Positions 3,384 through 40,892 of a stretch of DNA of 64,000 bases are shown in pieces. The position numbers were made by a program, and so were the translations under genes. The notes beneath the pieces were generated by a model. It saw only the letters and a list, made by a program, of their open reading frames with translations, was not told the DNA's origin and made no database searches. This DNA comes from Escherichia coli 042 (lineage in GTDB: Bacteria; Pseudomonadota; Gammaproteobacteria; Enterobacterales; Enterobacteriaceae), in assembly GCF_000027125.1 (NCBI RefSeq), contig NC_017626.1. One strand, 5' to 3'. Each line of letters begins with the position of its first letter. The first letter of the stretch is position 1.

Positions 3384-3746
3384 GGGGCTGATTCTGGATT
3401 CGACGGGATTTGCGAAACCCAAGGTGCATGCCGAGGGGCGGTTGGCCTCGTAAAAAGCCGCAAAAAATAGTCGCAAACGACGAAAACTACGCTTTAGCAG
3501 CTTAATAACCTGCTTAGAGCCCTCTCTCCCTAGCCTCCGCTCTTAGGACGGGGATCAAGAGAGGTCAAACCCAAAAGAGATCGCGTGGAAGCCCTGCCTG
3601 GGGTTGAAGCGTTAAAACTTAATCAGGCTAGTTTGTTAGTGGCGTGTCCGTCCGCAGCTGGCAAGCGAATGTAAAGACTGACTAAGCATGTAGTACCGAG
3701 GACGTAGGAATTTCGGACGCGGGTTCAACTCCCGCCAGCTCCACCA
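3384..3746 (+). ncRNA. ssrA: tmRNA (SsrA), 363 nt
   Basis: Starts GGGGCTGATTCTGGATTCGACGGGATTTGCG. It contains the tag reading frame gcaaacgacgaaaactacgctttagcagcttaa (ANDENYALAA*). It ends in the tRNA-like T-arm cgcgggttcaactcccgccagctccacca. Confidence 0.98.
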
Positions 3747-3858: not shown

Positions 3859-3911
3859 TGGGACCCTTATATGGACCCACCGACTGGGTCCAATAATTTG
3901 AGGGTCCAATA
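3859..3911. promoter_or_regulatory. cluster of GGACCC/GGGTCC motifs immediately upstream of int (possible Int/Xis or autoregulatory sites)
   Basis: tGGGACCC (3859-3866). Inverted pair TGGACCCAccgacTGGGTCCA (3872-3892). Direct repeat GGGTCCAAT at 3886-3894 and 3902-3910, ending 3 nt before the int ATG. Confidence 0.3.
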
Positions 3912-3912
3912 C

Positions 3913-5142
3913 ATGGCAAGGCAGACTAAAAAACTCACAGACACTGAAATCAAAAACACCAAACCAGCAGACAAAGAGATCAATCTCTTCGATGGTGATG
4001 GGCTACTGCTACGAATCGCTCCTTCATCAAAAGGAGGGAAGAAGAACTGGTATCTCAGATATCCAGTGCCAGTAACCAAGAAGCGCACCAAGATGAGCTT
4101 GGGTACCTACCCTCACCTCTCATTAGCAAAGGCAAGAGCTTTGCGTGATGAATACCTGTCGTTACTTGCTAATGGTGTTGACCCTCAAGTCCACATCACT
4201 GAAAAAACTAATGCTCTGAAAGATGCCACGGAGCACACGCTACAAGCAGTTTCTCGAAAGTGGTTAGATGAGAAAATTAAGACTTCTGGCATCTCTCTAG
4301 ACCATGCAGAAGATATCTGGCGCAGCCTCGAAAAAAACATCTTTTCAACTCTGGGTGATGTTCCTATCAAAGAGATCCGCCCCAAAATGCTCAAGCAGCA
4401 TCTTGACCCAATTGAGCAGCGCGGTGTTCTCGAAACTCTACGTCGTATAATTTCCAGACTGAATGAAATCTTTCGCTATGCTGCCACGGAAGAGCTTATA
4501 GAGTTCAATCCTGCCGACAATCTCGCTCAGCGTTTCAGTAAACCTAAGAAGCAAAACATGCCTGCCCTTCCACCTGATGAGCTACCACGCTTCATGGTTG
4601 CTTTATCTAACGCATCTATACGGTTAGAAACCCGTATGCTGATCGAGTGGCAATTGTTGACGTGGGTAAGGCCCGGTGAAGCCGTTCGGGCAAGATGGTG
4701 TGATATTGATGAAGAGAGCAGATTTTGGAATATCCCTTCAGAATTCATGAAAATGAAACGCCCACATAAGGTTCCATTGAGTAAAGAAGCTCTCCGCATT
4801 TTAGAAAACATGCGCCCTATCAGTGGTCATAGAGAATGGGTTTTCCCCAGCATCAAAGCTCCCCTCAGTCATATGCATGAACAAACAGCTAATGCAGCCA
4901 TAATTCGTATGGGGTTTGGCGGAGAGCTTGTTGCTCATGGTATGAGATCTATTGCAAGGACAGCAGCCGAAGAATACGGTAAGTTTAGAACGGAGGTGCT
5001 TGAATCCGCTCTGGCTCATACTAAAAAAGATGAAATAATAGCCGCGTATAACCGTTCGGAATACCTAGTTGAAAGAGAAGAACTAATGAAATGGTGGGGG
5101 GATTATGTCAGCAGCAAAAAATATAAGATGATGGCAGCATAA
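3913..5142 (+). CDS. P4-type tyrosine recombinase/integrase
   Basis: The N-terminus MARQTKKLTDTEIKNTKPADKEINLFDGDGLLLRIAPSSKGGKKNWYLRY is the typical P4/IntA-family arm-binding domain. The C-terminal catalytic region has ...VAHGMRSIARTAAEE... and ...ALAHTKKDEIIAAYNRSEY (R..HxxR..Y pattern). ATG 3913 is preferred over the track start 3871. Confidence 0.9.
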   Translation: MARQTKKLTDTEIKNTKPADKEINLFDGDGLLLRIAPSSKGGKKNWYLRYPVPVTKKRTKMSLGTYPHLSLAKARALRDEYLSLLANGVDPQVHITEKTNALKDATEHTLQAVSRKWLDEKIKTSGISLDHAEDIWRSLEKNIFSTLGDVPIKEIRPKMLKQHLDPIEQRGVLETLRRIISRLNEIFRYAATEELIEFNPADNLAQRFSKPKKQNMPALPPDELPRFMVALSNASIRLETRMLIEWQLLTWVRPGEAVRARWCDIDEESRFWNIPSEFMKMKRPHKVPLSKEALRILENMRPISGHREWVFPSIKAPLSHMHEQTANAAIIRMGFGGELVAHGMRSIARTAAEEYGKFRTEVLESALAHTKKDEIIAAYNRSEYLVEREELMKWWGDYVSSKKYKMMAA

Positions 5143-6501: not shown

Positions 6502-6835
6502 TGAATAGTGAAACTATGAACAGTACATATCATTTATAAGTGTGCTGTTCATAGTAATTCACAGAACATACTGATTAATTTTATTTTTTCCTAAAACCGG
6601 AAGAAAATAAACCAGTGAAATATTCTTTACATTTAAAATTCGGAGGCCACGGAAATATAAAATCTAATATTAATTACTAATTATATTTATAAAAGGTCTG
6701 CCTCTGACCATTTGAAATGAAAAACAAATCCCAATAATATAGAAAAAAATATCTGATATAATAATTTTGTAGATAAAATAGGCCTATATAAAAACATATC
6801 TTTAATTCCCCCCTTAAAAAGAGGGGCAAATACTG

Positions 6836-7882
6836 TCATTCCTCAAATCTATATAACGCGCCATCAAGATATTCTTCAACAGTATCTATACCGATCCATC
6901 TTCGGTTCAAACTCTCAGCTACAGCACCGGCAGTCATCGACCCACCAAATGGATCAAGAACTAAATCCCCTTCATCTGTAAGCATTTTAATGAAGAATTC
7001 AGGAAGCTGCATAGGGAAACGCGCAGGATGAATTTTGATACCATTAGCTTTACATTTTTTTGTATAAACGTCATTAGCTGCATTATTACCCATTTTCAAT
7101 ACATCAGACGGTGTTTCATCATCAATAAAATTAGGTGGGATAGACCCTCCATTATGGGTTTTATCAAAAGATTCATTAATATTATGTCCTGATGGTCGAA
7201 CAGTAGTTTTAACACCTTTTGCTGCAAGCCGAAGCATGTCCTTGCTATAAGGACGAAGCACTTTTTTATTACTTGCTTTTGGGTGTGGCCCTTTACTAAA
7301 CCAGAAAACATACTCTACAGAATCCTTCACTCGGACTCGTTTGACTGTAACCCATTGAGCAGGTACAGGCATCTTTGCAGGGTTGTACCAGAAAGTCTCT
7401 TGCGCTAGTCTGAATCCTACTTCCTCAACTAAAGCAATAACTAACTTAAAATGATAGATAGATCTAGTTGGCTCACCGGGATTCCAAGAGCCCCCGATGT
7501 TCAAAACGAAACTGCCATCTTCTGTCAGTATCCTTTTGATTTCTTTCGCAAAATCAACAAACCACTCAACGTAGTCCTTCTGACAGACATTACCATATTC
7601 TTTCTTAAAATGAAGTGCATATGGTGGAGATGTGAAGACTAAGTTAACCGAGTTATCAGGTATTGACTTCATCACGTCTAACGAATCGGCGTGGAAGATC
7701 GAACCCAAGTTAGATTCGTAAAACGGTTCAAACCCGTTGACTAACTTTGTAGTTGAATTTTTCTCTTTTGATGAAAAGTCAAGCGTTTTTTGAATAGTCA
7801 CAACAATAAATCTCGAAATGGGCAATCGGATTGCATTGTTGCGTACATAACACAAGGGATCAAGTACAGATGAACCAACCAC
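6836..7882 (-). CDS. beta-class DNA methyltransferase (N4-cytosine or N6-adenine), type II RM
   Basis: Motif IV VFTSPPY lies near the N-terminus. The AdoMet motif [17 protein letters not shown] lies near the C-terminus, which is the beta-class order. The first codon of the maximal ORF is GTG and the true start is unresolved (no ATG before residue 71). Confidence 0.85.
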
Positions 7883-9516: not shown

Positions 9517-9621
9517 AATTACTTTTCCTTCTAGTTGTCAAAAACATGGAATACAATTAAAAAAGGAAAAGGTCAAACCATAGGCAGAAGGTTGAATACT
9601 TTTTATTCCAGATTAAATAAC

Positions 9622-9695
9622 GCAGCGCGAGATGATTGTTCAAAACAATCACATTGCTGGAACAGGGTTCATCCCTGTTAATGATAGGATTCATC
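9622..9695 (+). repeat. twin-hairpin element copy R1 (candidate oriT/recombination site)
   Basis: gcagcgcgagaTGATTGTTcaaAACAATCAcattgctggAACAGGGttcatCCCTGTTaatgataggattcatc. It is repeated at 24950-25023, with 3 substitutions plus 1 indel over the 62-63 nt core. Confidence 0.85.
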
Positions 9696-9937
9696 TCAAA
9701 AAATGATGTTTTGGTTTTAAAAATATGATATTAGTAAGCTCAAAATAAAAACATGCAACACATACGAATGCAGTCACTAACATTAATTACCTGATACTCT
9801 CCGCGTTACTTATTTTATTGAATCAATGAAAACAATTTTACCTCTTGCTTTTTGACTCTGATTTCTGGTCTTAACCTGTGAATTGTGCAACACATAAAAG
9901 TATTTATAATTTTCACTATTTATTTTAAATTCTGCTT

Positions 9938-10276
9938 TCCCGCCTTACGGCGAGAGACTAATTTAACTACTTTTGCCCTTACGGGCGTTTTCTAAACACC
10001 AGAATCCAATATTATTATCCTACCTCAACCGTTTATCCGATTCCTACCTTTTTAATTTCACAGTCTGTAAAACTAGAGCTATTATTTAACTATAGAAAAA
10101 CATAAAACATTGTCGTTATTTTTAGCTCCTTTAGGAGATATAAAAATAAAGCAATGCCCACCTATACACTGCTACGCAGTGTGTGGGGTCTACCGACGGT
10201 TGCCTGCCGCAGGCTAACACCGTTTCCTTCGGAAACAAGGTCAACGTCAACACCAGAGTTTTTCTTACGAAAAACT
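9938..10276. other. hairpin-rich region upstream of the relaxase gene (candidate oriT / ssDNA-structure region)
   Basis: CGCCttacGGCG (9941-9952). GCCCttacGGGC (9975-9986). ACACTGCtacGCAGTGT (10166-10182). Nested ACGGT-tGCCTGccgCAGGCtaac-ACCGT (10196-10223). GTTTCCttcGGAAAC (10222-10236). AGTTTTTCttacGAAAAACT (10257-10276). The TTAC loop recurs. Confidence 0.45.
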
Positions 10277-10351
10277 AAAACCAGCTGAGTCGTATTGGAG
10301 ATTTATATTTTGGTTTGATATTTAAATTTATTTTGAGGTTGTTTTTATTAT

Positions 10352-11860
10352 ATGGCTATTTTTCATCTGGATTTTAAAATTGTGAAACGTTCTGAAGGCA
10401 GATCTTCCGTTGCGAAAGCTGCCTATCATGCTCGTACACGTATAACAGATGAAAGAACAGGTGATACCTATGATTATAGTCGCCGTACCGATTTATACGG
10501 ACATTTCATATTAGCACCAATTAATGCTCCAGAACATATCGTGAAAGACTCTACAGCATTGTGGAATGAAGTTGAAAGAGTTGAGCGCCAGAGCAATGGT
10601 CAAACATCCCGTTATTTCGATGTTGCCATACCTGCCGAGTTAAACAATGACGACAAGAAAAGACTTGTCCTTGAGTATTGTCAGAAAAATTTCGTTGATA
10701 AAGGCATGATTGCCGATATCGCTTTCCACGATCTTGATAGCGATAATCCTCATGCTCACGTTATGTTGACATTAAAAACCATAGGCCCTGAAGGTTTTGG
10801 TAAAAAAGAAAGAAGCTGGAACGACAGAAAAATGTCTGTTATATGGCGTGAATCATGGGCATCTATGGCTAACAGCTACCTTGCTGCCGCTGGCTCGTCA
10901 GAACGTATTGACCATCGTTCTCTTCAGGCCCAGCATGAAGAGGCATTAGAAAAAGCGGCGGTAGCTTTAGATAATGAAGAAAAAGCGCTATGGCTTGCTA
11001 AAGCCGCTGAAACAAACCGTCCTCCAATGAAGCGTATCCATAGTGCCAAATGGCGTAGTAAAGCAGCACAAGAGCAAAGAGCAGCAGAACAGGCTGTTCG
11101 TGATGCTGCCAAGCAGGAAGCGGTTGAAGTCTACAAGACTTTCAGCGAACTTGATCTTGAAATCGTCGTTGATGTCAGAAGCTTCACCGTGGCTGCTCTT
11201 GCTGAACCAGAAGAGATTGTATTACCAGAAACGCGCTCCGGCTCTTCTTCTCATGAAGCACAAAGTCCTGTATTGGTAGCGCCTATTCCTCATACTCATG
11301 TGCGTGGAGTTAAATCTTACCGCGATAAAGAAAAAGTGAGTAAAGTTGTCATTAATAATATATCAGAACCAAATGTTGCTGATGCTGACATAAACACTCT
11401 TTGGAAAACATCTCCATCTAAAACCAAAAATATGGCATCCAAAAGTACCGCTGAAAGTGTTAAAAGGAAACAGGCTAATCCGCGTCAGGATAATATCTTT
11501 AAACGCTTTACAACGCTTTTGATCGGTTTCTTCAAAGAGAAATTTATATGGGCTAAGAAGAAACCTGATCCTACCGAGATTGAACATGACAGGCATGTAG
11601 CAGAAAATTACGTCTTTGATGAAGTGCTGGGTGTCTATGTATCACGCGCTGACCATGAACAACGAGCCAGATTCAACGGTGATGATAAAGAGTTCTCTGG
11701 TTACAAGCCAACACCTGATGAGATTAAGCGTTTTCCAAGCCGTCTAGCTAATACAGCACAAACTGATAGAGAGCTCGACTACATGCCTTCGCTCGTGGCT
11801 GATAAGAAATCGTTAGCACCTAAATTGAAACCAAATGCTCCCTATAAAAATAGATTATAA
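10352..11860 (+). CDS. MobA/MobL-family (MOBQ-type) relaxase
   Basis: The N-terminus MAIFHLDFKIVKRSEGRSSVAKAAYHARTRITDERTGDTYDYS carries the catalytic Tyr region. The histidine triad HDLDSDNPHAHVMLT is present. The C-terminal half is low-complexity and no primase or helicase motifs are seen. Confidence 0.88.
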   Translation: MAIFHLDFKIVKRSEGRSSVAKAAYHARTRITDERTGDTYDYSRRTDLYGHFILAPINAPEHIVKDSTALWNEVERVERQSNGQTSRYFDVAIPAELNNDDKKRLVLEYCQKNFVDKGMIADIAFHDLDSDNPHAHVMLTLKTIGPEGFGKKERSWNDRKMSVIWRESWASMANSYLAAAGSSERIDHRSLQAQHEEALEKAAVALDNEEKALWLAKAAETNRPPMKRIHSAKWRSKAAQEQRAAEQAVRDAAKQEAVEVYKTFSELDLEIVVDVRSFTVAALAEPEEIVLPETRSGSSSHEAQSPVLVAPIPHTHVRGVKSYRDKEKVSKVVINNISEPNVADADINTLWKTSPSKTKNMASKSTAESVKRKQANPRQDNIFKRFTTLLIGFFKEKFIWAKKKPDPTEIEHDRHVAENYVFDEVLGVYVSRADHEQRARFNGDDKEFSGYKPTPDEIKRFPSRLANTAQTDRELDYMPSLVADKKSLAPKLKPNAPYKNRL

Positions 11861-13379: not shown

Positions 13380-14030
13380 TTACCAGCTATCATTATTTCG
13401 CTTTTCAATTGCATCACGATAACGCTGTTGTTCCACAACATCCAGATTTGGATCAAATAACACACTTGATCCTTTCACAGCAATATCGGCATCAATCTCT
13501 GATTGGGGAGCATAGGCCTTATAACCATTAGGCTGTGAAGTGGCTGTGCGGATATATGTCCCATAGTGTTTCCCATTCATAGAACAACCGATGTAAGCCA
13601 ACAGGCAGGCAAACAGGAAAAAGAATGTCCATACTGTATTATAGCCGTTAATCGTATATCCACTTCCATTCACATCTGAAAACACGCCATTAAACCTGAC
13701 CGCATAGACAATCAGGAACGATGAAAGGATAACGGTTCTGCTTTTACCAACAGTTAAATGTTTACGCACAAATTTCACTGTTGGTAGTAGAGTGACCATA
13801 AAAAGAGCGATAGCAACACATACCAGCCATATAGGAAACAGTCCATATTTTTGTGTAATGTTCTGCGATACCGTCACCAAGGACAGCACCAAGAAGGCGT
13901 TGAGCAGAAAAAGTCTGACCGCCATCCATACCTTCACGTTCTTTTGCGTCTTACGGAGAAACAGCATCGGAGTCAGTGATGGTATGTTCATCAGCAGACC
14001 GATGATAAGCACCCAATAGATAGAGTTCAT
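13380..14030 (-). CDS. polytopic inner-membrane protein (about 5-6 TM), unknown function
   Basis: 216-aa ORF with several hydrophobic segments (e.g. VLIIGLLMNIPSLTPMLFL, LFLLNAFLVLSLVTV, IWLVCVAIALFMVTLL, VWTFFFLFACLLAYIGC) and a polar C-terminal tail. It starts 17 nt after the preceding gene's stop, so it is the last gene of a 3-gene operon. Confidence 0.7.
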   Translation of the reverse strand: MNSIYWVLIIGLLMNIPSLTPMLFLRKTQKNVKVWMAVRLFLLNAFLVLSLVTVSQNITQKYGLFPIWLVCVAIALFMVTLLPTVKFVRKHLTVGKSRTVILSSFLIVYAVRFNGVFSDVNGSGYTINGYNTVWTFFFLFACLLAYIGCSMNGKHYGTYIRTATSQPNGYKAYAPQSEIDADIAVKGSSVLFDPNLDVVEQQRYRDAIEKRNNDSW

Positions 14031-14046
14031 AGCGTTCTTCCTGTAA

Positions 14047-14601
14047 TTACCGGGCTTGCCAACCGTTATTGATTTTCACCAGAACAATTTTGGCTTCTTC
14101 TGGTTCAGACATCCCTTTCACGCCAGAGAAGGCATTTTTATCAACCCAGCCCGGCACGCCATCCAGTTTCCACGTATAGGTCACTTGCGTCATTTTAACG
14201 CCATTACCCTCACTCGGTTCAGTCCAGCTTTTAACCTCAGCTACGGCACGGTGACCAACACAGGCACCATCTTTACGATCCCAAAACTCAACCTCTTGGC
14301 CTTTGTCTGTTACTTCCAGAACATCTACGCTGCTAAAGCCGTTAGGTTGCTGCGAAACATCAAGCAGTCCCTGATTAGCCAGACCTTTCAAGATTTCATC
14401 ACTGGCACTGTATCCAGCAGAACGATAGCCATGGTTGACCTTAACCGGAAAACCTTTATTGAACGTAAAGTCATTGTCCTGAAGGGAGTAGCAGACCTTA
14501 GATTTTGATATATGCTCGTTTATCGCTTTCTCAAAGTCGCCTTTTTCACCGCAGCCTGATAACAACACGGCAAGTCCTGCAATGACTAAAAATTTACTCA
14601 T
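14047..14601 (-). CDS. lipoprotein, unknown function
   Basis: Signal peptide plus lipobox MSKFLVIAGLAVLLSGC|G. 184 aa. There is a 15-nt gap to the upstream lipoprotein gene. Confidence 0.75.
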   Translation of the reverse strand: MSKFLVIAGLAVLLSGCGEKGDFEKAINEHISKSKVCYSLQDNDFTFNKGFPVKVNHGYRSAGYSASDEILKGLANQGLLDVSQQPNGFSSVDVLEVTDKGQEVEFWDRKDGACVGHRAVAEVKSWTEPSEGNGVKMTQVTYTWKLDGVPGWVDKNAFSGVKGMSEPEEAKIVLVKINNGWQAR

Positions 14602-14615
14602 GGTTCTTATTCCTT

Positions 14616-15194
14616 TTAATGATTGATAGTGCCGTTTCTCAGAACAACCAGACGAACTGGCATATCGGCATTGTTTACTGTGGCGAAGCCACGAACTTCG
14701 AAGTTGTTGACTGTTCCAGTGACACTGACTTTCTGGCCTTTCTTGTAAGTAAGAACCGCATCATCAATACCAGAGTAGTAATCCAGCCAGACCATCCCGC
14801 CGCAGTAGCTTGTATCGGCTGTTTTAAAGAGCAGATAATAATTAGGGGCTGATTTGGGCATTCCCGTCATCATATCGCTGGCACTTCTGCCCTTCGTAAC
14901 CTCAAGAACAGTGGCATTGGTGATAGCGATCCTTTTGCCAGTCCATTTTTTTTCTGCTGCCATCGCATTTTCTTCATAGTCTTTGCAGACAGCACCAAGG
15001 CCAGTAATGGACGTCGCTGGACCACTATCCTGACCGGAAGCTGAAACCCGCAGCGCTTTATCAACGGTGCTGTTCAATGATGCCAGTGAAGAGTTAATTG
15101 CCCCATTAACGCTATTCACGCCTTCGTTGAGTTGCTGGCAGCCAGAAAGAAACACCAGAGAGATCGCCAGTGGTAAGAAGTTATGTCCTTTCAT
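14616..15194 (-). CDS. lipoprotein with C-terminal OB-fold (tRNA_anti-like lipoprotein family) domain
   Basis: Lipobox MKGHNFLPLAISLVFLSGC|Q. The C-terminal region ...WTGKRIAITNATVLEVTK...YYLLFKTADTSYCGGMVWLDYYSGIDDAVLTYKKGQKVSVTGTVNNF resembles the OB-fold putative-lipoprotein pattern as I remember it. Confidence 0.7.
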   Translation of the reverse strand: MKGHNFLPLAISLVFLSGCQQLNEGVNSVNGAINSSLASLNSTVDKALRVSASGQDSGPATSITGLGAVCKDYEENAMAAEKKWTGKRIAITNATVLEVTKGRSASDMMTGMPKSAPNYYLLFKTADTSYCGGMVWLDYYSGIDDAVLTYKKGQKVSVTGTVNNFEVRGFATVNNADMPVRLVVLRNGTINH

Positions 15195-17097: not shown

Positions 17098-17505
17098 ATG
17101 TCTGATGCTTTAAAGATCATCAACAATATTCGTACTCTCCGTGCTCAGGCTCGTGAACTGACACTCGAAACCTTGGAAGAGATGTTAGAAAAACTCACTA
17201 TCGTTGTAGAAGAACGTCGTGAAGAAGAGGCCTCATTTCTAAAACAGCAGGAAGAGAAACAGGCCAAGCTGGAAGCATTCCGTCAGAAGTTGTTGGAAGA
17301 TGGCATAGACCCGGCAGAGTTGCTTTCAACTGTTAGCCCATCTTCTTCCAAGACAGGAGCGAAACGCGCCCCACGTCCAGCTAAGTATAAATATGTTGAT
17401 ACCGATGGTTCGGAAAAGACGTGGACAGGTCAGGGCCGAACTCCTCGTGCTATCGCTGCTGCGCTCGAAGCCGGTAAGACACTGGAAGATTTCGAGATCA
17501 AGTAA
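17098..17505 (+). CDS. H-NS family nucleoid-associated protein (island-encoded full-length paralogue)
   Basis: [44 protein letters not shown]... is the N-terminal oligomerisation domain. The C-terminal DNA-binding motif is [17 protein letters not shown]. 135 aa. It is distinct from the core stpA at 50350-50754. Confidence 0.92.
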
Positions 17506-18324: not shown

Positions 18325-19578
18325 TTATTCACTTGCCTGAGTCGCTCTTGTCGCATTTGTTTTTAAATTATTCAGCATTTGCTTATCAACCGGTTGCAGT
18401 TGTTGTCCTAACAGAGCCGCAAGCAAAATATTTGTGTCTTCTGTTCTTTCGATTTGAAGCATTTGTAATCTTAAATCAAGTGCCTGCATTCTTGCCTGCT
18501 CATGCGCAGTTTCTTTTTCATCAGCACTACTGATTTTTACCTGCCAAGCGTCAGCACCTGTTGTATCTGCATAGCGTGAATAGATCTCATATCTTAACAT
18601 TTCCCACTCTGAAGGATTATCCGGGAATGTTGTGCCGGGAAATAAGGTCGCATACTTGTTTTTTACGGAAGCATCTGACCAAGCAAGGTTTGCTCCCTGC
18701 GTAGAGCCCAATGTGGATCCTATTTTGGCCCCTCTGGAGTTCACTGATATATTACTTGCTTTTTTCATTGCCAGTACGGAATCAATGGCGTTTGTTCCAG
18801 CAGTGCTTCTGGAGACAAAGCTCGAAAAGGCCGATAAATATTCTCGACCTTCATTTGTGTCTTCTAATCCTTTGTTCTTCAATGGTTCAACGGGCAAGTT
18901 CCCTATAAGATTTCTTTTTGCCGCTTCAGCAACCTCAATCTGCTCAACAGAATAGGACTGATTCGAAACCTTATTAGACAATGCATCGGATTTAGATAAT
19001 GGTGGTGTAATCAGGCTTGATGCCGACTTATCTTTATCAGGATACTGACCTATAGTATTACACCCACCTCTGTTATATTTCACATCATCTTCGGAGCAAA
19101 CATTTATTGATACTCTGCCCATGATGTTTTTCTTGGCCTCATTTATTCTGGTATTTGCTTGTGTAAACATCTTAACGCTGTTTTCAGATAAAGCCTCTTT
19201 AGCTGAGCTTGTATTCGATCCTGCTGCACCACGACCACCTGCGCTCGTGACTTCTTCACAGGCGTTGGCATCAGGTATTCTGTTTAAGATATTTTTCATG
19301 CGCTGTTCTTGGATTGCCTGACTGGCATTACTGACAACCGCATTCTTCTGATTCTCACTGGCTGTTATGGTTGCTTGTGCCAGCTTGTCGTTCATTGAGA
19401 CTAATGTTTCAATTATTCCATTGCCCATAGATTGGGGTGAAGCCCCCATAAGATACGGTGTCAAAACCTCTTCTGTGACGGGCCAGACAGCGAAAGCTGT
19501 ATTTGTATATAATACAGAAAAACACAAAGCTGAAACCACTGTTATTCTCTTTACTTTAAATTTATTATTACTCATCAC
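18325..19578 (-). CDS. secreted/periplasmic protein, unknown (possibly IcmX/TraW-like partner of the TraY-like protein)
   Basis: 417 aa with signal peptide MMSNNKFKVKRITVVSALCFSVLYTNTAFA|V. It is Cys-containing, Ser/Asn/Ala-rich and has a C-terminal coiled coil. The functional guess rests only on neighbourhood and general features. Confidence 0.6.
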   Translation of the reverse strand: MMSNNKFKVKRITVVSALCFSVLYTNTAFAVWPVTEEVLTPYLMGASPQSMGNGIIETLVSMNDKLAQATITASENQKNAVVSNASQAIQEQRMKNILNRIPDANACEEVTSAGGRGAAGSNTSSAKEALSENSVKMFTQANTRINEAKKNIMGRVSINVCSEDDVKYNRGGCNTIGQYPDKDKSASSLITPPLSKSDALSNKVSNQSYSVEQIEVAEAAKRNLIGNLPVEPLKNKGLEDTNEGREYLSAFSSFVSRSTAGTNAIDSVLAMKKASNISVNSRGAKIGSTLGSTQGANLAWSDASVKNKYATLFPGTTFPDNPSEWEMLRYEIYSRYADTTGADAWQVKISSADEKETAHEQARMQALDLRLQMLQIERTEDTNILLAALLGQQLQPVDKQMLNNLKTNATRATQASE

Positions 19579-19924
19579 AACACTCCTGTTAACTTATTAC
19601 CTTCTTTATTATTTAACCAATTAAATATGAACTGTCAATTTTAACAAAAATATTCATCTGGCATCCAACTTTAAAATTATTATAAAAGAAGCGTATAAAT
19701 CCAACGAAGTAGATTCCATGAACTAGCGTGGTGCTTTTATAGCTTTATCGATGAAGATAGATAGCATGAAATAACTTTACTTTTACGGGAGCATAAAACT
19801 TTATAAAAGTAATGTTTCCATTCAAAAAAGCCGTAGCAATATTTTATTTTAGATGCAGCCATTTCAACTTTGTTTATAAGAAAAAATATAAAGTGAGTTT
19901 CATTGCAGATAATAATCAGTTAGA

Positions 19925-19944
19925 AAGAGGACCGAAGCCCTCTT
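19925..19944 (-). terminator. UUCG-loop hairpin after the TraY-like gene
   Basis: The minus strand reads AGAGGGCttcgGTCCTCTttct, starting about 5 nt after the stop at 19949. Confidence 0.6.
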
Positions 19945-19948
19945 AATA

Positions 19949-22609
19949 TCACATTCCATCATTACCTTCTTTTGATGATGAACTACCACCGGAAGATCCA
20001 CTACCGCTCCCTTTCTCTGGAGCCTTAAAGCTTTCAATTGGTGAAGCTTGGGCCTGTAAACTTACAGGCAGCAACGGTCTGTTATGTTCACCAAACGATA
20101 CCGCTCTGTTAGCAGCCTTTTGAGCTACATTCATATAACCTGCTGCGCCTGCTGTATCACCAATAGCATCTGCTGCCTCAGCTGCATGGTAAGCCGAGTT
20201 AGCACTTTCAAGAGACTGATATTCATCCTGCTGATCAAGTGGGCCAGCATTACTCATATGAGTTCTGAATGCAGATCCCGTATCATTGGCTTTATTAGCC
20301 GCCAGTGCTTTCCCCTGTTGAGCCTGTTGCTGTTGTTGAAGCTCACGTTGCTGTTCACGGTCTTTGTTAATTTGCGCATTCCTGATCTGATTACCCATCG
20401 CATTTGAGGTATGGGAAACCTGATCCAACACGGTTTTGGTAAACATAGCACCTTCAACACCTTTTGATGCCGACTGTGCGTAACCCGACATGCTCTGACC
20501 ACCATGAACACCAAGCCACTTCATAATTTCATCAGGGATGATGTGAATCAGTGAAAGTGATTTCTTCACTACCGTGAACATCATTGCAATATAAACAGCA
20601 ATGAGAGCCAGTGACTCGATGATACCTATCCCGGCATTGGCTGACATCATGCCAAAAGCGCCGGAGAATGTTTCGTTGACGATCCCACCAAGGATAGGGA
20701 GCATCGTATAGGCTGCTATTAATCCTGTTATCATTAGCGCTGGTCGCATGGTTAACGATAAAACCAGACCATAACCAGCGCCACCACGACCCACTACGCC
20801 ATCACCATCTGGATGTAAATGTGTTATTACCCATAATGGTGCTGCGACCATTGCTTCAAGGCACAGGATCATCCAGCCTACGCAAACACCAAACCACATG
20901 ACGTAAGGCAGCATAGGAATGACGACGGCTAAAGTATCGCCAGCTATCCATAAAGGGATAACCAGTGGCATAACAATCCCCATAGCGCCAAATGCACCCG
21001 ATACCCAGCTTGCAGTCGCTGATGTCCATGCGCCAAGACCTGCCCCAACAACAGCAGAACTCCCTAATAACGTCCAGCCAGCGGCACTGATCGTATCCCC
21101 AAGCCCTTTAACAGCTAATAACGGGTTTATTGCCTGTAAATTGGCAGCGGTTGTGTCCGTCGAGAACGAGACGATTTTCCCTTGTTTTCTTCCATTGATA
21201 ACGCTGGAACTGAGAAAACCCGCCATTGCACCAGAAATGCTCTTATTGGCTTCACTTTGAAGAGAAGAAACTATTTTTCCAGCATCATCTGTTTTAGGGC
21301 CTACACCACTTTTACCACTGGTATTGGCTTCCGTTCGGTTTTGCGCATCAATACCATTCGCATATCTTGAAGCTGTCGTTGATTTCGCCATATCTTGAGC
21401 CACTTTTGCCATAATCGCGTTCAGGCTGTTATCGAATATATCTCCGTATTCCATTGTCGCTTGCCCGGCTACAGGAAGATTATGAGCTGCTCCATTAATC
21501 GCATCCTGCACACGGATCAGTTTCATACTCCATGCGCCAGCCATAAACCATCCGTCTTTCTGGACATTCTCTTTGAAATCATCCCACTGGTCGCCAGTGG
21601 AGAAAACTGTTCGTACTGCAGTATCAATAATGGATACATATGAGGCCGTTGCGCTGTTTATTCCGGTCTGAATATCAATATTATTATCGGCCACATACTG
21701 TTCAGCCAGCGTTTTCATACTATTATCAAGGCCGATAAATGCGGCATTGTGTGCCTCAATAACATCTGAAATATTCGTCTTTATATCCTGTGGCATATAA
21801 GCCATATACATGCCGCCAGCAGCAATGGTAGCCTGAGCTTTAGCCTGTTCGTCATAAGAAGCTTTGGCCTTCGGGTCTGTAAGCGTGATGCTTCCACATG
21901 CAGCCTTGGATACCAGTAAATTTTTATTCATATCATTACCGGCATTGCTGGCTCCATAACTGTATGTGTATAAATAGGCACCTTTCTCCGGTGTCATTTC
22001 AAACGCAGGCGTGACGTGCGGGAAGGGATCGGCTGCTGCTGATTTCTTCCATAATTCTCCCGCCTTTAACATACAGACGTTATTGATAAAGGCGGTTTTC
22101 GCTATGCGATCAAGCTCCTGATAAGATGCAGATGTGGTAATAACAGCCCCATCTGAGGGGTTGGATGCATAGGTATTCCAGACGGTATCTGCCAGACCGA
22201 CTCCCTGATTAATCATCCACAGCACCATAACCTGAGCGGCACAGAAACCACCTGCTGCCGGGAGTATCATTGCCGTGCCTAATGCAGTTCTTACGGGCAA
22301 CCACATGGAAGACCATTTCTTACCCAGCATTTCTCCGTCATGTGCCGTTGACATGGTTCCGGCAATCAGTGTGTAGGCAGCTAAAATGCCACCAACCAGT
22401 AAAACAGCGCTGTTAAGGATTGTCATTGTGCTGGCTAAGGGACTTTCCGCTAAATTGTCCGGGAATAAGATATCCAGAAACCACAGCTTTGATTTGTCTG
22501 TCTCCGGGACGGTAAATAAATCTGCGGCATAAGCTGACTGAGTTAATAACAGGCAAGCTAATATTACTAATAATATCGATACTTCTTTTTTCTTTATATT
22601 TATCATCAT
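19949..22609 (-). CDS. DotA/TraY-family type IVB secretion integral membrane protein (orphan)
   Basis: 886 aa with an N-terminal signal/TM. The conserved-looking block is ...TAHDGEMLGKKWSSMWLPVRTALGTAMILPAAGGFCAAQVMVLWMINQGVGLADTVW..., followed by a long periplasmic-like region, then about 6 C-terminal TM segments and a Q-rich/Gly-Ser tail. The pattern matches what I remember of IncI TraY and Legionella DotA. Confidence 0.7.
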   Translation of the reverse strand: MMINIKKKEVSILLVILACLLLTQSAYAADLFTVPETDKSKLWFLDILFPDNLAESPLASTMTILNSAVLLVGGILAAYTLIAGTMSTAHDGEMLGKKWSSMWLPVRTALGTAMILPAAGGFCAAQVMVLWMINQGVGLADTVWNTYASNPSDGAVITTSASYQELDRIAKTAFINNVCMLKAGELWKKSAAADPFPHVTPAFEMTPEKGAYLYTYSYGASNAGNDMNKNLLVSKAACGSITLTDPKAKASYDEQAKAQATIAAGGMYMAYMPQDIKTNISDVIEAHNAAFIGLDNSMKTLAEQYVADNNIDIQTGINSATASYVSIIDTAVRTVFSTGDQWDDFKENVQKDGWFMAGAWSMKLIRVQDAINGAAHNLPVAGQATMEYGDIFDNSLNAIMAKVAQDMAKSTTASRYANGIDAQNRTEANTSGKSGVGPKTDDAGKIVSSLQSEANKSISGAMAGFLSSSVINGRKQGKIVSFSTDTTAANLQAINPLLAVKGLGDTISAAGWTLLGSSAVVGAGLGAWTSATASWVSGAFGAMGIVMPLVIPLWIAGDTLAVVIPMLPYVMWFGVCVGWMILCLEAMVAAPLWVITHLHPDGDGVVGRGGAGYGLVLSLTMRPALMITGLIAAYTMLPILGGIVNETFSGAFGMMSANAGIGIIESLALIAVYIAMMFTVVKKSLSLIHIIPDEIMKWLGVHGGQSMSGYAQSASKGVEGAMFTKTVLDQVSHTSNAMGNQIRNAQINKDREQQRELQQQQQAQQGKALAANKANDTGSAFRTHMSNAGPLDQQDEYQSLESANSAYHAAEAADAIGDTAGAAGYMNVAQKAANRAVSFGEHNRPLLPVSLQAQASPIESFKAPEKGSGSGSSGGSSSSKEGNDGM

Positions 22610-22625
22610 TACATTCCTTTGCCTC

Positions 22626-23150
22626 TTACTTCATTGAATTACTGATGCTGCTCCAGACATCGTTTCCGTTGACTGTTGCTCCCGATCCTGATGAAGAGCC
22701 AGTTCCTGTAGAAACACTTCCATTTGCGATATTCCCAATCACGGGCATATCAATAGAAATGCTTTCGGATATACTTCCGGTCAGTTGACTTACTTTTTCC
22801 CTCGCAATCGAACAGGCTTTACTTATTGCTGCTTCCTTCGTTTTTTTAATTATTGAATCCACAGATGGCAGGCTGATGCCGAGGTTACCCACAGGCCAAG
22901 CGTCCGTACAACCAATCGTCTCAAGTGACTGATTGATGTTATCCATGAAATTCTTCGCTACCGGCTCTAACTGAGCCGCATCCTGCTTCATTGCGTTATA
23001 TTGCGCTTGTTTTAATGATGAGCTGACATCCGGGCTACAGACTGCTGCATTAGCTGTGGTTGCTGAAATTAATATTGTTGCGGGAAGGATTATTTTGAAA
23101 ATGCGGACACAGACATTTGTTCGCCATTTATTTTTATTAAGTTTATTCAT
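22626..23150 (-). CDS. small secreted protein co-transcribed with the TraY-like gene
   Basis: 174 aa with a signal peptide (...ILPATILISATTANA|A), 4 Cys and a Gly/Ser-rich C-terminus. Its stop is 16 nt upstream of the TraY-like start. Confidence 0.6.
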   Translation of the reverse strand: MNKLNKNKWRTNVCVRIFKIILPATILISATTANAAVCSPDVSSSLKQAQYNAMKQDAAQLEPVAKNFMDNINQSLETIGCTDAWPVGNLGISLPSVDSIIKKTKEAAISKACSIAREKVSQLTGSISESISIDMPVIGNIANGSVSTGTGSSSGSGATVNGNDVWSSISNSMK

Positions 23151-24949: not shown

Positions 24950-25023
24950 GCAGCACTTAGTGATTGTTCAAGACAATCACATTGCTGGAACAGGGTTCAT
25001 CCCTGTCAATGATGGATTTATCC
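24950..25023 (+). repeat. twin-hairpin element copy R2
   Basis: gcagcacttagTGATTGTTcaagACAATCAcattgctggAACAGGGttcatCCCTGTcaatgatggatttatcc. It has the same orientation as R1 (9622-9695). Confidence 0.85.
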
Positions 25024-25090
25024 ATAAAGAATTGCGGCGATAGCCGCTATGAAATAAAGGAGAAACAATTTCATCTGTACTCATATATAA

Positions 25091-28280: not shown

Positions 28281-28499
28281 TTATGCTACTTTATTACGTG
28301 ATAAAGTAATCTTTTCATCAATCCACTTATCTATATCACTCTCTAAGAATGCTATTGCTCTTTCACCAAGTTTTATTGGCGATGGGAATTCATTACGACT
28401 AATCAAACGATAAATCCACGCTTTACATAAACCAGTACGATTTAATACTTCTGGTAAACGAATAAGTCTTTTACTGTTTGATACTACATTAGTATTCAT
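28281..28499 (-). CDS. AlpA-family (MerR-superfamily) phage/island transcriptional regulator or excisionase
   Basis: 72 aa from ATG 28499 (SD gtgAAGGAGataaag). ...KRLIRLPEVLNRTGLCKAWIYRLISRNEFPSPIKLGERAIAFLESDIDKWI is the classic AlpA/Xis HTH pattern. Confidence 0.85.
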   Translation of the reverse strand: MNTNVVSNSKRLIRLPEVLNRTGLCKAWIYRLISRNEFPSPIKLGERAIAFLESDIDKWIDEKITLSRNKVA

Positions 28500-28654
28500 C
28501 TTTATCTCCTTCACGTTGTTCTCGATAGAGATAATTATCGTATTTTTTCTAGGAGCTAACTAGGGGTGTTCAGGCGAGAGATTTTAACGCTAAAGTGAGT
28601 TTTGATGAGTTTCGGGGAAGTTCAACCGGAGTGAAGTTCCCCATTTTTTGCTTT

Positions 28655-29521
28655 TTACTTTTCTTGTTCTTCTTGCTCGTCTTCGGGTAAGTAGTAGTTG
28701 ATGAAACTCCACACTTTCCAATCCCTGTCAGAGTCGTATTTAACTATAAAATCGCCTAACGATTTGATGTAGCTCTGGTTGGTCATAAAACCTACAGCCA
28801 AAGGATAATCAGTATCTTTTACCATGCCTTCACTGCGGTTATTTTCACTAATCAGATGAGGGTAAAGCAACCTCGTCAGCAGCGCTATACCAATTTTGGT
28901 GTTGTTCTTTTTCTCCCAGAACATGAGATCAAACATCGGTATAAGATTATATTTCATAACTTTTTTGATCGTACCGACCCCAAAACGATAACCTCTTTCT
29001 TCATGGGGCCTCACCTTAAGCTCCTTCTTCCATCGCGGTATCATCGTTTTCAGATGCTCAATGATGTCTTCTGTAGAAGCCTCTGAGAGATGAATTTCAA
29101 CAAACATGACATCTTTACTGATGCCCGCTTGATTAAGGTATTGCGAAAGCTGCCTTGACCTCTTAGCCTCTTCTTGCGGGCCAATAAGTCTATTCACCAT
29201 ATCAACAGCCCCAATAACATCTTTCGCACCAGCAATAGTCAGTGGATTTGCTATGTAGCTTGATGAAAGGATTTCTTCTGGCTTGTCAATTTTAGCGTCC
29301 TCATTAAAGAGGACTTGCCCGGACTGTATCTTCTGCTCATGATCATCAACAAGAGCTTTAAGTTGGGGTTTAAGCGAATCGTATTGGGTGAGCAGATTGT
29401 AAGCAAGAACACGTCTTTCTACTTCTATGTATATCTGTTCAACCGTCAGCTCGTTCAGCACATTATACTTGTCAACGTCGAACCATTTAGTCACTACCTT
29501 TACTATTTCTGTTCTCGTCAT
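28655..29521 (-). CDS. hypothetical protein (288 aa)
   Basis: Long ORF translationally coupled to the upstream gene by an ATGA overlap at 29518-29521. No family recognised. Confidence 0.65.
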   Translation of the reverse strand: MTRTEIVKVVTKWFDVDKYNVLNELTVEQIYIEVERRVLAYNLLTQYDSLKPQLKALVDDHEQKIQSGQVLFNEDAKIDKPEEILSSSYIANPLTIAGAKDVIGAVDMVNRLIGPQEEAKRSRQLSQYLNQAGISKDVMFVEIHLSEASTEDIIEHLKTMIPRWKKELKVRPHEERGYRFGVGTIKKVMKYNLIPMFDLMFWEKKNNTKIGIALLTRLLYPHLISENNRSEGMVKDTDYPLAVGFMTNQSYIKSLGDFIVKYDSDRDWKVWSFINYYLPEDEQEEQEK

Positions 29522-30248: not shown

Positions 30249-30272
30249 AAGCCCACAGATGTGGGCTTTTTC
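30249..30272 (+). terminator. intrinsic terminator (plus-strand orientation), abutting the ypjA stop
   Basis: aAGCCCACagatGTGGGCTttttcg. The T-run is on the plus strand only. Confidence 0.7.
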
Positions 30273-30280
30273 GTTGATGG

Positions 30281-33200
30281 TTAGAACGACCAGTTCACAC
30301 CAGCTACCGCGTTCCACGGGGATTCCACACCGGCACCATGGCTATACCCCACCCCGAGATGCCCGCTTAATGAACTGCTGAATGAGGCTTTAATACCTGC
30401 CTGGTATATTCCACGTCTGCCCGACAAATCATTGACAAAATTACCGTCATTATTCACTTTCACCCGGTTATCATCGACAAATTCTTTGCGCACAGCCGCC
30501 TTCAGCCACGGCTCAACTTCCATACCGTTCCCCAGACGCATGTTGTAACTCAGCGTTGCGCCCAGTTCACGATATATACTGCGGGTATCGACTGATTTCG
30601 ATTCCATGCCATTGGATAAATGATATTCGGGGTTATCAGCGGTGAACCCCGTTAACGATGCATACGGCGTCAGGTTCCAGTTACCATCGGTAAATCGCAT
30701 CCCGGTTTCAATGTGACCGCCCAGCCCGTTGCTGCGATAACTGCCGTTGGCGGCTCCACCGCTGCTCATTTTACCGGCTACGTTACTTTCAAAACGGTTC
30801 AGCTTCACGATACCGTCCAGATAGAAACCACTTTCATGTTCCCAACTGGCATAGCCGCCCAGAGAATAACTGCCCACACTGCCATGTCCTCCGCGATCAA
30901 AACCGATATGTGAATGGGAATAACCCATAAAAGCGCCCAGCGTGGCAATTCCTTCAGGAATATCATTACGGCTGTCGATCCCCACGGTCATTCCGGTCAG
31001 CGTCTGCTCAAACCCGGCACCCGCATCGGTGGTGACATTATTACGGGTGTTATACGTCGCCCCCCAGACATTATTGTTGTGTGGACTCGCTTTCATTATG
31101 TTCAACCGCTCGCGAATACTGTTTAGCTCAGCATCAAATACCAACGGTAATGTTGCTGCCATATTGAGTACGGCTGCCGTAGAAGGCGTGATGCGTTTCT
31201 CCGGGACGGGTGTCGGCGTTGGATCGGGAGTCGGGTCTGGTTTCGGATCCGGTTTTGGGTCTGGTTTTGGATCCGGTTTCGGATTTGGGTTGGGGTCCGG
31301 GTTGGGTTTGACATCATTGGTCAGGTTCCAGTTGCTGTTGCCGTCGCTTTTCAGGACATACTCATAGGTCCCAAGATCAACGAAACCGCCGGTATTACCC
31401 AGCGTAAACGAAGCATCCCCTCCCCCTGTTTTCACCAGCGTCATCGCGTCGTCAGACTGAGGGCTGACGCCGGTATCCTGAACAAAGATTTTAAAATTAC
31501 CAGTGGCGTTGTTGTTGACGACCAGTTGATCGCCCCGGGAGCCTGCAACGTTGGTATGCAGGTAGAAATTACCGCTGCCGGAAAGTTCACTGGTGGTCAG
31601 CGTATTGTAGATACCGTTAGTTGTGGCAGGCGCTGCTGTTTGTGCTGATAAATAAACATCACCGTCGTTGAGAAGCAAACTGTTTACTCTATATTCGCAG
31701 TTGCTGGTGCCTGCACAGGAATTATTGCTGTTAAGCCAGACACTGCCCCGGCTGGCAGCCGTCAGGTCGGCAAGCGTCGTATCGACGCCATTTCCGATAG
31801 TTAATGTCGCGCTATCGGTAATCCGGACCACCCCTTCAAGTTTAACTGGCGTAACATTATCCCGTGGCGTCATTAACGACAGGCTTCCTGTCGCGCCACT
31901 GACCGATGCATCCGCCAGCGTACCTGCGTAGACGATTGCCGTCCCGCCAGCGATCAGTAGATCTTCTGCCCGGGCCAGAGCCTGAAACTCATCTTTTGAC
32001 CGACCGAGGGTATATTGCCCACCGGAATTAACCTTTGTGGCGAAGTCCTGACCCAGGTTTTGCATTGCCCCACCGTTGCCAACCGTGGAATCGCGAGCTT
32101 CGGTACCTGCTAATACCAATAAATTACCGCCATTTTCCAGCAGCACATTGGTCGCTAAATTTCCGGCAATGGAAAAGGTGCCGTACTGGTGAGTACCGCT
32201 GATTTCAATACCGTTAGCCGTGCTCGTCTGGAGAGCGGCACCGCTGTTCTGGATGATATCTGTCGCTTTGCCATTATCGTTGACTGTCAGCGTACCGCCT
32301 TCATTAATCGTTGTTTTTACTGCCTCACCGTTAGCCGAAACTGTTTGTATTCCGCCGTCGTTAATCGTTGTCTCATTCGCCACCCCCTCGACGATTTGTT
32401 CGCCGCCGGTGAGCGTCGTGCCTGTCGCAGTGGCTTTTGTTTTGACGATCTCCCGCCCGCCCGCATTGACCTGTGTTTTGGCGGAAGTGGTGTCTGACTC
32501 CACGGTTAACACGCCGCCATTTGCCAGCAGGATATTGTTCGCCGCATCCTGCTCAATGCTGAACGCGACGCCATCAGCGCGTGTCCCTGTGACCCGCGTC
32601 GCTCTGGTGGTTGCAACCAACGCGCCCTGGCTACTTTGCTGTATCCCCGTTGCGCTGCCTTTCTCCCGCACATCGAGAGTGCCGCCTTCATTAAGCACCG
32701 AGTTTTCAGCCAGACCGCCCTCATTAACTACCTGTGAACCGCCATTAATAATGGAACCTTCCGCTGTCCCGTTTACCATAATTTGTTGTAGGCCAGAGAC
32801 GATATCGGTATTGATCGCCTTACCATAATTCTGAACGGTTTGCGTACCGCCATTGATGTGCGTTTTGTCTGTTGACCCACCATCAACAATTTGTTCACCA
32901 CTTTCAATATTTGCATCAGTGGCTAAACCATATACCGTTTGCTTGCCACCTTTGATATTTGCTTTTTCAGAAGTGGCACTGGCATATATTGTTTGGGTAC
33001 CAGCACTATTAAGTACAGTACCAACATCTTTTCCATAAACATCCATTTTGCCGTTGGCATTAATAATCGTGTCAACTGCCCGGGAACCAGTGACGACTGT
33101 TAATGAGCCAGCGTTTTCCAGCACTACATTTTTAGCTTCTGAATTCCTGATGTAGAAAACATCACCATAACTGTTGGTTCCTTCGATAAGTGTTCCGGAA

Positions 33201-34855: not shown

Positions 34856-35252
34856 AAATTTCATCCTCTGAAAAGTGAATACTGAGTAGCGTTTAAGCGA
34901 CCTTAGCTTTGCTGCAACATCAGCCCACAGGCACCAGACCAGGGGATTCATCCTGAAGAGACAGCGCAAGTGTATTGTGTTCACCGCTCATCAAAGACAT
35001 CATGATGAAATGATGATATTCCGCATAAGAATGAGGCATTTTTTTAAGACATTGTGCTGAAGGATGATTGGATAAAAAAGTCAATCTTTTCAGGAAATAC
35101 GGCGTATTCTTTTCTTTCGACATTGAAGCCGTCGGAAAAATAAAATGATTTACATAATCGTTTCTGATGAATATCTTCTGCTCACATAAAAATCACACAA
35201 TAACATTGAGATTGCAGATTGTTTTACTTTTACAGCTTTCGTCCCCTCATTG

Positions 35253-35381
35253 TTGGGCAAATATTGGTAGAGTCAGAGCACGAAAGTTAATACCACGTTC
35301 GCACAGCTCCTCCAACAGCACGGCAAGATGCCGCATACTGCGCCCCAGTAGGTTCAGTTTGCAGACAACCAGTGTGTCACC
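35253..35381 (-). pseudogene. pinH: serine recombinase/invertase fragment (pinH-like remnant)
   Basis: The minus strand translates to [43 protein letters not shown]. This is the central segment of Pin/Hin/resolvase-type recombinases (…GDTLVV.KLDRLGRS..HL…L..RGI.F.SL). The N- and C-termini are missing. Confidence 0.75.
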
Positions 35382-35384
35382 TAC

Positions 35385-35515: not shown

Positions 35516-35618
35516 AAAAACTTTCAGGCAGCTAAGGAAAGTTGAATCAGACATTAGATGAAATATTTCAACCAATTACAGCACCAATTTAAACTCAGTA
35601 AATCACAGCGCAGATCAA

Positions 35619-40882: not shown

Positions 40883-40892
40883 TTTAATGTTA

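Follow-up and report, generated by a model that had tools for sequence, protein, structure and literature searches.

Plasmids that conjugate with an I-type machine, that is, a type IVB secretion system (T4BSS), among them IncI1, IncI2, IncK and IncL/M, are major carriers of extended-spectrum β-lactamase, carbapenemase and mcr genes, and the factors that determine the recipients and the parasites of these plasmids are poorly understood. Here we analyze a group of three genes, two of which encode predicted T4BSS channel components (hereafter, the trio), that is carried by a ~26-kb island in the chromosome of Escherichia coli 042, within a 64,000-nucleotide (nt) stretch of contig NC_017626.1 (hereafter, the window, meaning the entire stretch), bases 3-30271 of which are 99.5% identical to E. 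coli strain AHB1. The trio encodes an 886-amino acid (aa) inner-membrane protein of the DotA/TraY family and two secreted proteins of 417 aa and 174 aa (p174). In Legionella, DotA is also secreted into the culture medium. Legionella DotA and IcmX interlock via their extended domains to form a pentameric protochannel that sits within the DotG cage, gates translocation and rearranges on activation (bioRxiv 10.1101/2025.06.23.660953). In elements with the I-type mating-pair formation apparatus (MPF_I), TraY is the donor-side partner of entry exclusion (PMC12282955). In an F-type setting (MPF_F), Salmonella genomic island 1 (SGI1) escapes the entry exclusion of IncC plasmids by replacing their TraN, TraH and TraG subunits (PMC5389848). 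The island analyzed here is one of a family that shows a relationship to the ROD21/EARL islands; ROD21 itself lacks the trio but carries genes for PilV-like, pilin, TraD and MobQ proteins (PMC10655114), and the papers that define the EARL family report that no type IV secretion system (T4SS) is encoded and do not mention DotA/TraY (PMC6035254). In our searches of the literature on ROD21, DotA/TraY, genomic islands and IncI plasmids, no description of the trio module was found.

The analysis presented here suggests, with a probability that we put at roughly 40%, that the trio is a working module with which an integrative mobilisable element supplies a channel pair to the T4BSS of a helper. The island encodes a relaxase without a machine, together with a matched channel pair that is under selection, and supply to a helper machine is therefore the simplest explanation. 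Hijacking of a helper had been put forward in an earlier reading of the bare DNA sequence (hereafter, the original prediction), and our results suggest that it is the best available explanation, though one that is not tied specifically to IncI plasmids.

The relationship of the 886-aa protein to DotA and TraY, recognized already in the original prediction, is borne out by profile and structure-database searches. The family hidden Markov model TIGR04346 (DotA_TraY) matches the protein with 419.7 bits (cut-off 100) from end to end, residues 43-700 corresponding to positions 4-656 of the 656 in the profile, and the Legionella DotA chain of PDB 9ngy is matched with an E-value of 4.7e-42. A crude hydropathy scan, used in place of a dedicated topology predictor, indicates a signal-like N-terminus, two N-terminal transmembrane (TM) segments (peaks at residues 64-82 and 115-133), a poorly conserved soluble domain of ~370 aa (about residues 160-530), a cluster of hydrophobic helices at 538-685 (seven overlapping windows, about five helices), and a variable, Q-rich and G/S-rich C-terminal tail. 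TM1, TM2 and the hydrophobic helices of DotA align with the matching regions of the island protein, as befits the DotA/TraY topology, and the blocks 41-160 and 561-720 are kept even in relatives with ~30% identity. Against the equivalog model NF033886 (T4SS_DotA, Legionella type), the protein scores 280.5 bits, below the cut-off of 500; its similarity to plasmid TraY of IncI1, IncK, IncB/O or IncL/M is not close (21-23% identity); and compared with the Legionella DotA-IcmX pair (PDB 9ngy), the periplasmic extended domain is without significant similarity. Judging from its sequence, the 886-aa protein is a member of the DotA/TraY family and a predicted protochannel subunit of a T4BSS, with a putative VirB6-like role.

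Direct searches of Pfam and NCBIfam with the 417-aa protein returned no match, NF033888 (conj_TraW) giving nothing at E<=1, and pairwise comparisons gave faint signals, namely, a collinear BLASTP alignment with IncI TraW (23% identity, E 0.19, merely suggestive) and a weak hhalign match between the two shallow profiles of the 417-aa family and IncI TraW (E 0.054). Deeper sampling changed the picture. A profile of the 417-aa protein identified 108 relatives among 1.84 billion representative sequences; 31 of the 50 aligned relatives match NF033888 (best E-value 4.5e-21), and the extended profile derived from this 50-sequence alignment matches IncI1 TraW with an E-value of 1.4e-30 as well as ORFs (open reading frames) that adjoin DotA in the position of IcmX in Legionellales-like loci. 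Furthermore, in precomputed annotation PF28212.1 is assigned both to homologues that are 98% identical to the 417-aa protein and to homologues of IncI1 TraW; the model itself lies outside the local copy of Pfam. Sequence profiles of the 417-aa family and of IncI TraW did not match IcmX in the PDB, which was reached by fold comparison alone; the AlphaFold2 model built from 15 close homologues was useless (predicted local distance difference test score 37.9) and was replaced by a model from the 50-sequence alignment, with an IcmX-like fold. On these converging, independent lines, we assign the 417-aa protein to the TraW/IcmX family, as a periplasmic partner of the DotA/TraY-like protein. The ORF starts with GTG, whereas the Prokaryotic Genome Annotation Pipeline (PGAP) places the start at an ATG one codon downstream.

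The three ORFs lie on the minus strand where the original prediction had placed them, and both partner proteins, 417-aa and p174, open with Sec-type signal sequences, as read from the translations, in line with the secretion that had been proposed for them. In p174, the signal ends ...TTANA|AV and is followed by a soluble body, the mature part having three cysteines and a Gly/Ser-rich C-terminus. The 16-nt gap between the p174 stop and the start of the 886-aa gene includes an AAGGA ribosome-binding site; the stop of the 886-aa gene is closely followed by a short GC hairpin and its T-run and then by an AT-rich spacer of ~370 nt, and the 417-aa gene has an AGGAG ribosome-binding site of its own. 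Given this arrangement, it is reasonable to propose that the p174 and 886-aa genes are co-transcribed and that the 417-aa gene is transcribed separately; a promoter and terminator scan of the sequence performed no better than on shuffled sequence. The suggestion that one of the secreted proteins might correspond to TraX, in contrast to the TraW/IcmX comparison, did not hold: p174 shows no similarity to IncI TraX (BLASTP E 41), a protein without a signal sequence whose long hydrophilic N-terminal part is accompanied by two hydrophobic segments near residues 95-160. In 14 distant loci, a TraX profile picks up the ORF that lies upstream of DotA, p174 not being among these ORFs. Homologues of p174 are located solely directly upstream of island-type DotA genes. 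Identities of the trio as a defense system or as phage proteins were likewise rejected, on PADLOC and PHROG searches. In sibling islands (L008, L009, L010, L013, L014 and L046), the spacer between the DotA-like and TraW-like genes ranges from 0.3 to 4.1 kb, compared with 0.37 kb here, and in E. coli H22 (L046) a GNAT acetyltransferase gene and further genes lie within it; this spacer seems to be an insertion point for cargo inside the trio.

Compared with the TraW-TraX-TraY-ExcA region of IncI1 (R64-type) plasmids, the island has in common a polytopic membrane protein of the TraY/DotA family and a secreted partner of the TraW family. It differs in gene order (p174-TraY-TraW as opposed to traW-traX-traY), in identity of about 22-23%, in the signal of the TraW-like protein, which is of the signal peptidase I type as opposed to the lipobox of IncI1 TraW, and in the absence of TraX, ExcA and the other ~20 tra/trb genes. 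When 27 IncI Tra, Trb, Pil and Nik proteins were compared with the 64-kb window by tblastn, only the TraY-like gene was matched, which implies that the island is mobilisable rather than conjugative; Pfam scans of the other island ORFs revealed no T4SS gene, in agreement with the original prediction that no other secretion-system genes are present. In particular, the determinants of a complete MPF_I apparatus, TraU/DotO, TraJ/DotB, TrbC/DotL and the core proteins TraN/O/I/H/M, were found neither in the window nor in the siblings. The setting differs from that of Legionella, where Dot/Icm translocates effectors: there is no Dot/Icm machine here, and the context is that of a mobilisable island. 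The element combines a tyrosine integrase at ssrA, a MobQ relaxase and a TraD-like accessory protein with no mating-pore genes of its own, that is, it has the make-up of an integrative mobilisable element, and the host of the trio was therefore correctly foreseen to be a mobilisable island.

The trio recurs in this orphan state. It is present in 190 of the 5426 complete E. coli genomes (about 3.5%), always in the chromosome, and in at least eight genera besides Escherichia: it was also found in Enterobacter, Kluyvera, Serratia, Pectobacterium and Brenneria, and matches to the trio proteins in protein databases add Klebsiella, Salmonella, Citrobacter and Dickeya. At least three insertion sites are used, namely, ssrA (the window and AHB1), leuX-tRNA (AST85) and the Asn-tRNA region (IMT5155 and H22), the latter being the site used by ROD21-like islands. 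No ATPase, coupling protein or core-complex gene was detected in twelve other loci that belong to this island family, which comprise three annotated E. coli loci at Asn-tRNA or leuX-tRNA (L002, L045, L046), eight GTDB loci inspected with up to 10 kb of flank, and the AHB1 ssrA island (L001); the last is 99.5% identical to the window and hence is not an independent case. The neighbors of the trio in the inspected loci are the same backbone genes and variable defense cargo, with no other T4BSS gene. In Enterobacter adelaidei ECC3473, two copies of the trio (L008 and L009) reside at different chromosomal sites, with 97-98% protein identity to the window.

For all three genes, dN/dS is between 0.055 and 0.126 in every pair for which dS could be estimated (p174, 0.076-0.126; the 886-aa gene, 0.055-0.102), the pairs spanning from 2% to 35% protein divergence. 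These values indicate purifying selection on the trio, which therefore is not decaying, and because some pairs have dS above 1, the low ratios are not an artefact of very recent spread. The occurrence of trio proteins with 97-98% identity in E. coli, Enterobacter, Kluyvera, Serratia and Klebsiella implies recent transfer. The association with mobilisation modules is old, given that in metagenomic contigs (L005/L006) orphan DotA genes with 36% identity adjoin TraD, MobQ and RepL-like genes. That every other T4BSS gene is missing from the element, that insertion sequences interrupt some E. coli copies (H14, H17-H20) and that ROD21 manages without the trio might lead one to regard these genes as the decaying remnant, devoid of present function, of a former integrative conjugative element; with dN/dS in the purifying range for each of the three genes in every pair that allowed an estimate, ORFs intact in many genera, family-wide conserved blocks retained and the link between DotA and MobQ modules persisting at 36% identity, we consider this highly improbable. 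The original prediction had already set the length and intactness of the ORFs against a remnant.

If the trio serves a helper, as we propose, a conjugative element with an I-type machine would share the cell with the island, and the TraY/TraW cartridge of the island would enter the core complex of the helper, displacing the TraY and TraW of the latter. The swapped channel would admit island DNA to cells that already hold the helper, in keeping with the role of IncI TraY as the target of the recipient ExcA, and would favor transfer of the island over that of the helper, as SGI1 does with TraG, TraH and TraN of IncC. The DotA-IcmX interface is located in fast-evolving periplasmic domains, which would be the reason for the island to bring both partners. 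By analogy, SGI1 and IncC are the precedent for such channel substitution: SGI1 is also an integrative mobilisable element that has no T4SS and encodes its own versions of a few mating-pore subunits of the helper, one of which belongs to a family targeted by entry exclusion. The two cases differ in that SGI1 works with an MPF_F apparatus, its subunits are 37-78% identical to those of a known helper, and both substitution and escape from exclusion have been demonstrated experimentally, whereas the island is of the I type, with ~22% identity to the IncI subunits and no known helper. The original prediction regarded such a parasite-helper interaction as undescribed, which, given SGI1 (PMC5389848), holds in part: the strategy is already known, and in a T4BSS it has not been previously described.

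Sibling islands extend this pattern to the pilus. In the avian pathogenic E. coli strain IMT5155 (L002, 4910-6983) and in H22 (L046, 2753-4826), the islands encode a tip adhesin of the IncI shufflon-type PilV and a PilS/BfpA-like major pilin, and the pilus assembly genes (PilQ, PilR, secretin, prepilin peptidase) were not found in these islands. Orphan PilS and PilV can work only with the machinery of a helper, and the orphan thin-pilus pilin and adhesin genes of the relatives hence fit the same picture of supply to a helper. More generally, the islands might carry portable cartridges of recipient-facing parts of I-type machines, TraY/TraW with p174 in one case and PilS with PilV in the other, which, once installed in the machine of a helper, would alter the range of cells that can be entered and allow escape from exclusion, a generalization that we regard as doubtful.

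Several observations weigh against helper supply. Both TraY and TraW of IncI1, IncK and IncL/M are about 21-23% identical to the island proteins, far from the 37-78% identity between the SGI1 subunits and their IncC counterparts, and the closest TraY from a true plasmid in a set of 72,556 plasmid records, that of Aeromonas, is 25.9% identical, so that no matching helper was found. The IncI-type helper specifically named in the original prediction is therefore not indicated. The probable origin of transfer (oriT) region matched no conjugative plasmid, only records that hold the island. MobQ resembles the relaxases of small MOBQ plasmids that are promiscuously mobilised by many systems, the N-terminal domain having 53-57% identity to those encoded by such plasmids of ~4 kb. 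Neither this region nor the relaxase points to a particular helper. For related islands, the sole experimental transfer data are those for ROD21, which lacks the trio: transfer was reported at a frequency of 1e-8, dependent on the F-like plasmid pSLT and independent of the island relaxase (PMC3976249). Finally, p174 has no match in Pfam, NCBIfam, PADLOC or PHROG, and no assigned role.

A rival reading is a function that is independent of any helper, whereby the pair was inherited from an ancestral T4BSS element and now forms an envelope channel or a surface structure that contributes to fitness, colonisation or DNA entry, with p174 as a lineage-specific third component. Besides the lack of a known helper with similar subunits and the secretion of Legionella DotA noted above, purifying selection that persists without a nearby T4BSS gene and the existence of distant orphan DotA genes that lack a TraW-like neighbor within 10 kb (L005, L007 and L016) are compatible with such a role, and related islands such as ROD21 have been studied as virulence islands (PMC6968874). 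We nevertheless deem this unlikely: in the Legionella structure the DotA-IcmX pair is housed within the DotG cage and the outer-membrane core and relies on both, an autonomous role for a DotA-IcmX pair is not known, and the repeated linkage to relaxase modules and to orphan pilin and adhesin genes points to conjugation. The DotA-family genes of L005/L006, L016 (Gilliamella) and L007 are 33-39% identical to that of the island and are likewise orphans, with neither a TraW-like gene nor a p174 homologue within 10 kb; L005/L006 also hold a chaperone-usher fimbrial operon, and the DotA gene of L016 has just an integrase nearby.

A further possibility is that the island TraY and TraW act as antagonists or decoys that poison I-type machines, of resident or incoming plasmids, and so shield the host or the island. 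Neither an ExcA homologue nor a known exclusion or fertility-inhibition protein was found, known exclusion employs a small inner-membrane protein of the recipient and no copy of TraY (PMC12282955), and a matched, separately conserved TraW partner exceeds the needs of a simple decoy; all this renders antagonism quite improbable, even if divergent subunits that keep the conserved N-terminal and hydrophobic blocks could give dead-end mixed assemblies, the islands are rich in defense cargo (restriction-modification, retron-type reverse transcriptase, TIR, SIR2, SMODS/SLATT), and SGI1-like islands are reported to inhibit their helper as well (PMC13635750).

Should the trio indeed supply a channel pair to helpers, a type IVB system would for the first time be seen to undergo channel swapping, and the trio would be a natural handle on the docking of the DotA-IcmX gate into a foreign core complex; a pair with ~22% identity, if it works in foreign core complexes, would reveal the contacts that are required for docking and gating. 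It was not until 2025 that the DotA-IcmX protochannel was resolved, and the island pair bears on that structural question. A selected channel pair without a machine, in ~3.5% of complete E. coli genomes and in other genera including plant pathogens, points to an unrecognised layer of interactions between helpers and hitchhikers. The trio also corrects the published claim that ROD21/EARL-type islands encode no T4SS component.

With the ROD21/EARL islands, the island shares a backbone of TraD, MobQ, a SEN1982-family lipoprotein, an H-NS homologue, a RepL-like gene, a helix-turn-helix (HTH) regulator and DUF6387; two H-NS-type genes, along with the RepL-like, HTH and DUF6387 genes, are counted in the backbone of the present island (Table 1). 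The E. coli islands at the EARL site (IMT5155 and H22) contain the same trio, with 59-85% protein identity, and the comparison with IMT5155 extends to TraD (55% identity), MobQ (60%), H-NS (74%) and the SEN1982-family lipoprotein (48%), in accord with the relaxase, TraD and H-NS content of EARL islands. The island departs from the EARL pattern in its integration at ssrA instead of Asn-tRNA, with an integrase that is 31% identical to that of L002, and in the type IV pilin and PilV genes, which were not found in the window and are present in L002 and L046.

Table 1. Features of the island and of the trio (window coordinates unless a sibling locus, L plus a number, is given)
Feature	Position	Strand	Evidence or remark
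ssrA (tmRNA), integration site, left end of the island	3384..3746	+	ARAGORN; PGAP, in the locus with 99.5% identity
Tyrosine integrase, P4-like, with Arm-DNA-binding domain	3871..5142	+	Pfam PF13356, PF22022, PF00589
TraD-like relaxosome accessory protein, 103 aa	9205..9516	-	PF06412, 48.6 bits; PGAP
Divergent TraD-MobQ intergenic region, probable oriT	9517..10351	.	Inferred from position; conserved in sibling islands
MobQ (MobA/MobL) relaxase	10352..11860	+	PF03389, 192 bits
Three small envelope protein genes (216-aa protein, SEN1982-family lipoprotein, 192-aa lipoprotein)	13380..15194	-	Conserved in siblings
H-NS family protein	17098..17505	+	PGAP; 74-98% identity across sibling islands
TraW/IcmX-family secreted protein, 417 aa, periplasmic partner of DotA/TraY	18325..19578	-	
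Spacer, DotA/TraY to TraW-like gene	19579..19948	-	Terminator-like hairpin, then AT-rich putative promoter
DotA/TraY-family inner-membrane protein, 886 aa	19949..22609	-	TIGR04346; PDB DotA 9ngy; dN/dS
p174, secreted protein, 174 aa	22626..23150	-	ORF; 16 nt upstream of the DotA/TraY gene
RepL-like backbone protein adjoining the trio, 254 aa	23471..24235	-	30-46% identity to RepL-annotated genes of L002, L005, L046
HTH regulator and DUF6387 protein, right end of the island	28281..29521	-	Identity to the AHB1 island stops at 30271
Defense-type variable cargo	L045 6289-14915; L046 529-2470; L002 29739-31622		

The HTH regulator at the right end is a possible excisionase-type protein; a search for attR, in the form of a copy of the 3' end of ssrA, found none. 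The variable cargo of these islands is mostly of the defense type: at 5164-7882 of the window, it consists of a DNA methylase and a DUF3644 protein bearing an EC042_2821-like nuclease domain; in the siblings, it includes an AvaI/BsoBI restriction enzyme, a reverse transcriptase, and TIR, SIR2 and SMODS/SLATT proteins. Within the probable oriT region, at 9622-9704, there is an element of 83 nt, the two hairpins of which are TGATTGTT..AACAATCA and AACAGGG..CCCTGTT. A second copy of this element, 81% identical, is located at 24950-25032, between the RepL-like gene and a 232-aa replication-initiator-like gene; the element is conserved at this second position in sibling islands, and L008 has three tandem copies ~325 nt apart. 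The element could be a second oriT, an iteron of a replication origin or a regulator site.

Among the plasmid records, the trio is present in a single one, CP088875.1, a 393-kb E. coli 'plasmid' typed as non-mobilisable, in which it is of the Asn-tRNA-type variant with a MobQ gene alongside; this record may be a misassigned chromosomal fragment. A DotA/TraY-like match occurs in 3928 plasmid records, 298 of which are typed as mobilisable and 386 as non-mobilisable, and in one example, the Aeromonas plasmid pKAM376_3 (L004), the annotation shows no further T4SS gene in the vicinity of the DotA/TraY gene. Plasmids that are not conjugative may commonly carry orphan TraY genes. The closest enterobacterial relative of the 886-aa protein outside the islands is a 763-aa DotA-like protein with 31% identity, represented by 214 member sequences and encoded in a Salmonella Schwarzengrund contig (L042, 10001-12292). 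The respective element encodes ParA, LPD7, a primase-helicase with DUF927 and a pair of PilS-type pilins. Pfam gives no match for about 15 ORFs in the neighborhood, and T4SS domains could not be recognised within 10 kb; a similar ParA/DUF927 context is seen in a Pseudoxanthomonas locus (L044). The L042 element may represent another class of elements with an orphan DotA or, alternatively, may encode an unrecognised machine.

Beyond the right end of the island, a ~10.7-kb stretch of the window (30272-41019) is missing from the otherwise 99.5%-identical AHB1. It contains genes for a 1567-aa AIDA/pertactin-type autotransporter (30281-34984) and for DUF5507 and DUF5508 proteins, a tRNA whose anticodon is CAT (37995-38070) and an alpha-amylase-like ORF of 750 aa, and presumably resembles the CP4-57 remnant region of E. 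coli K-12.

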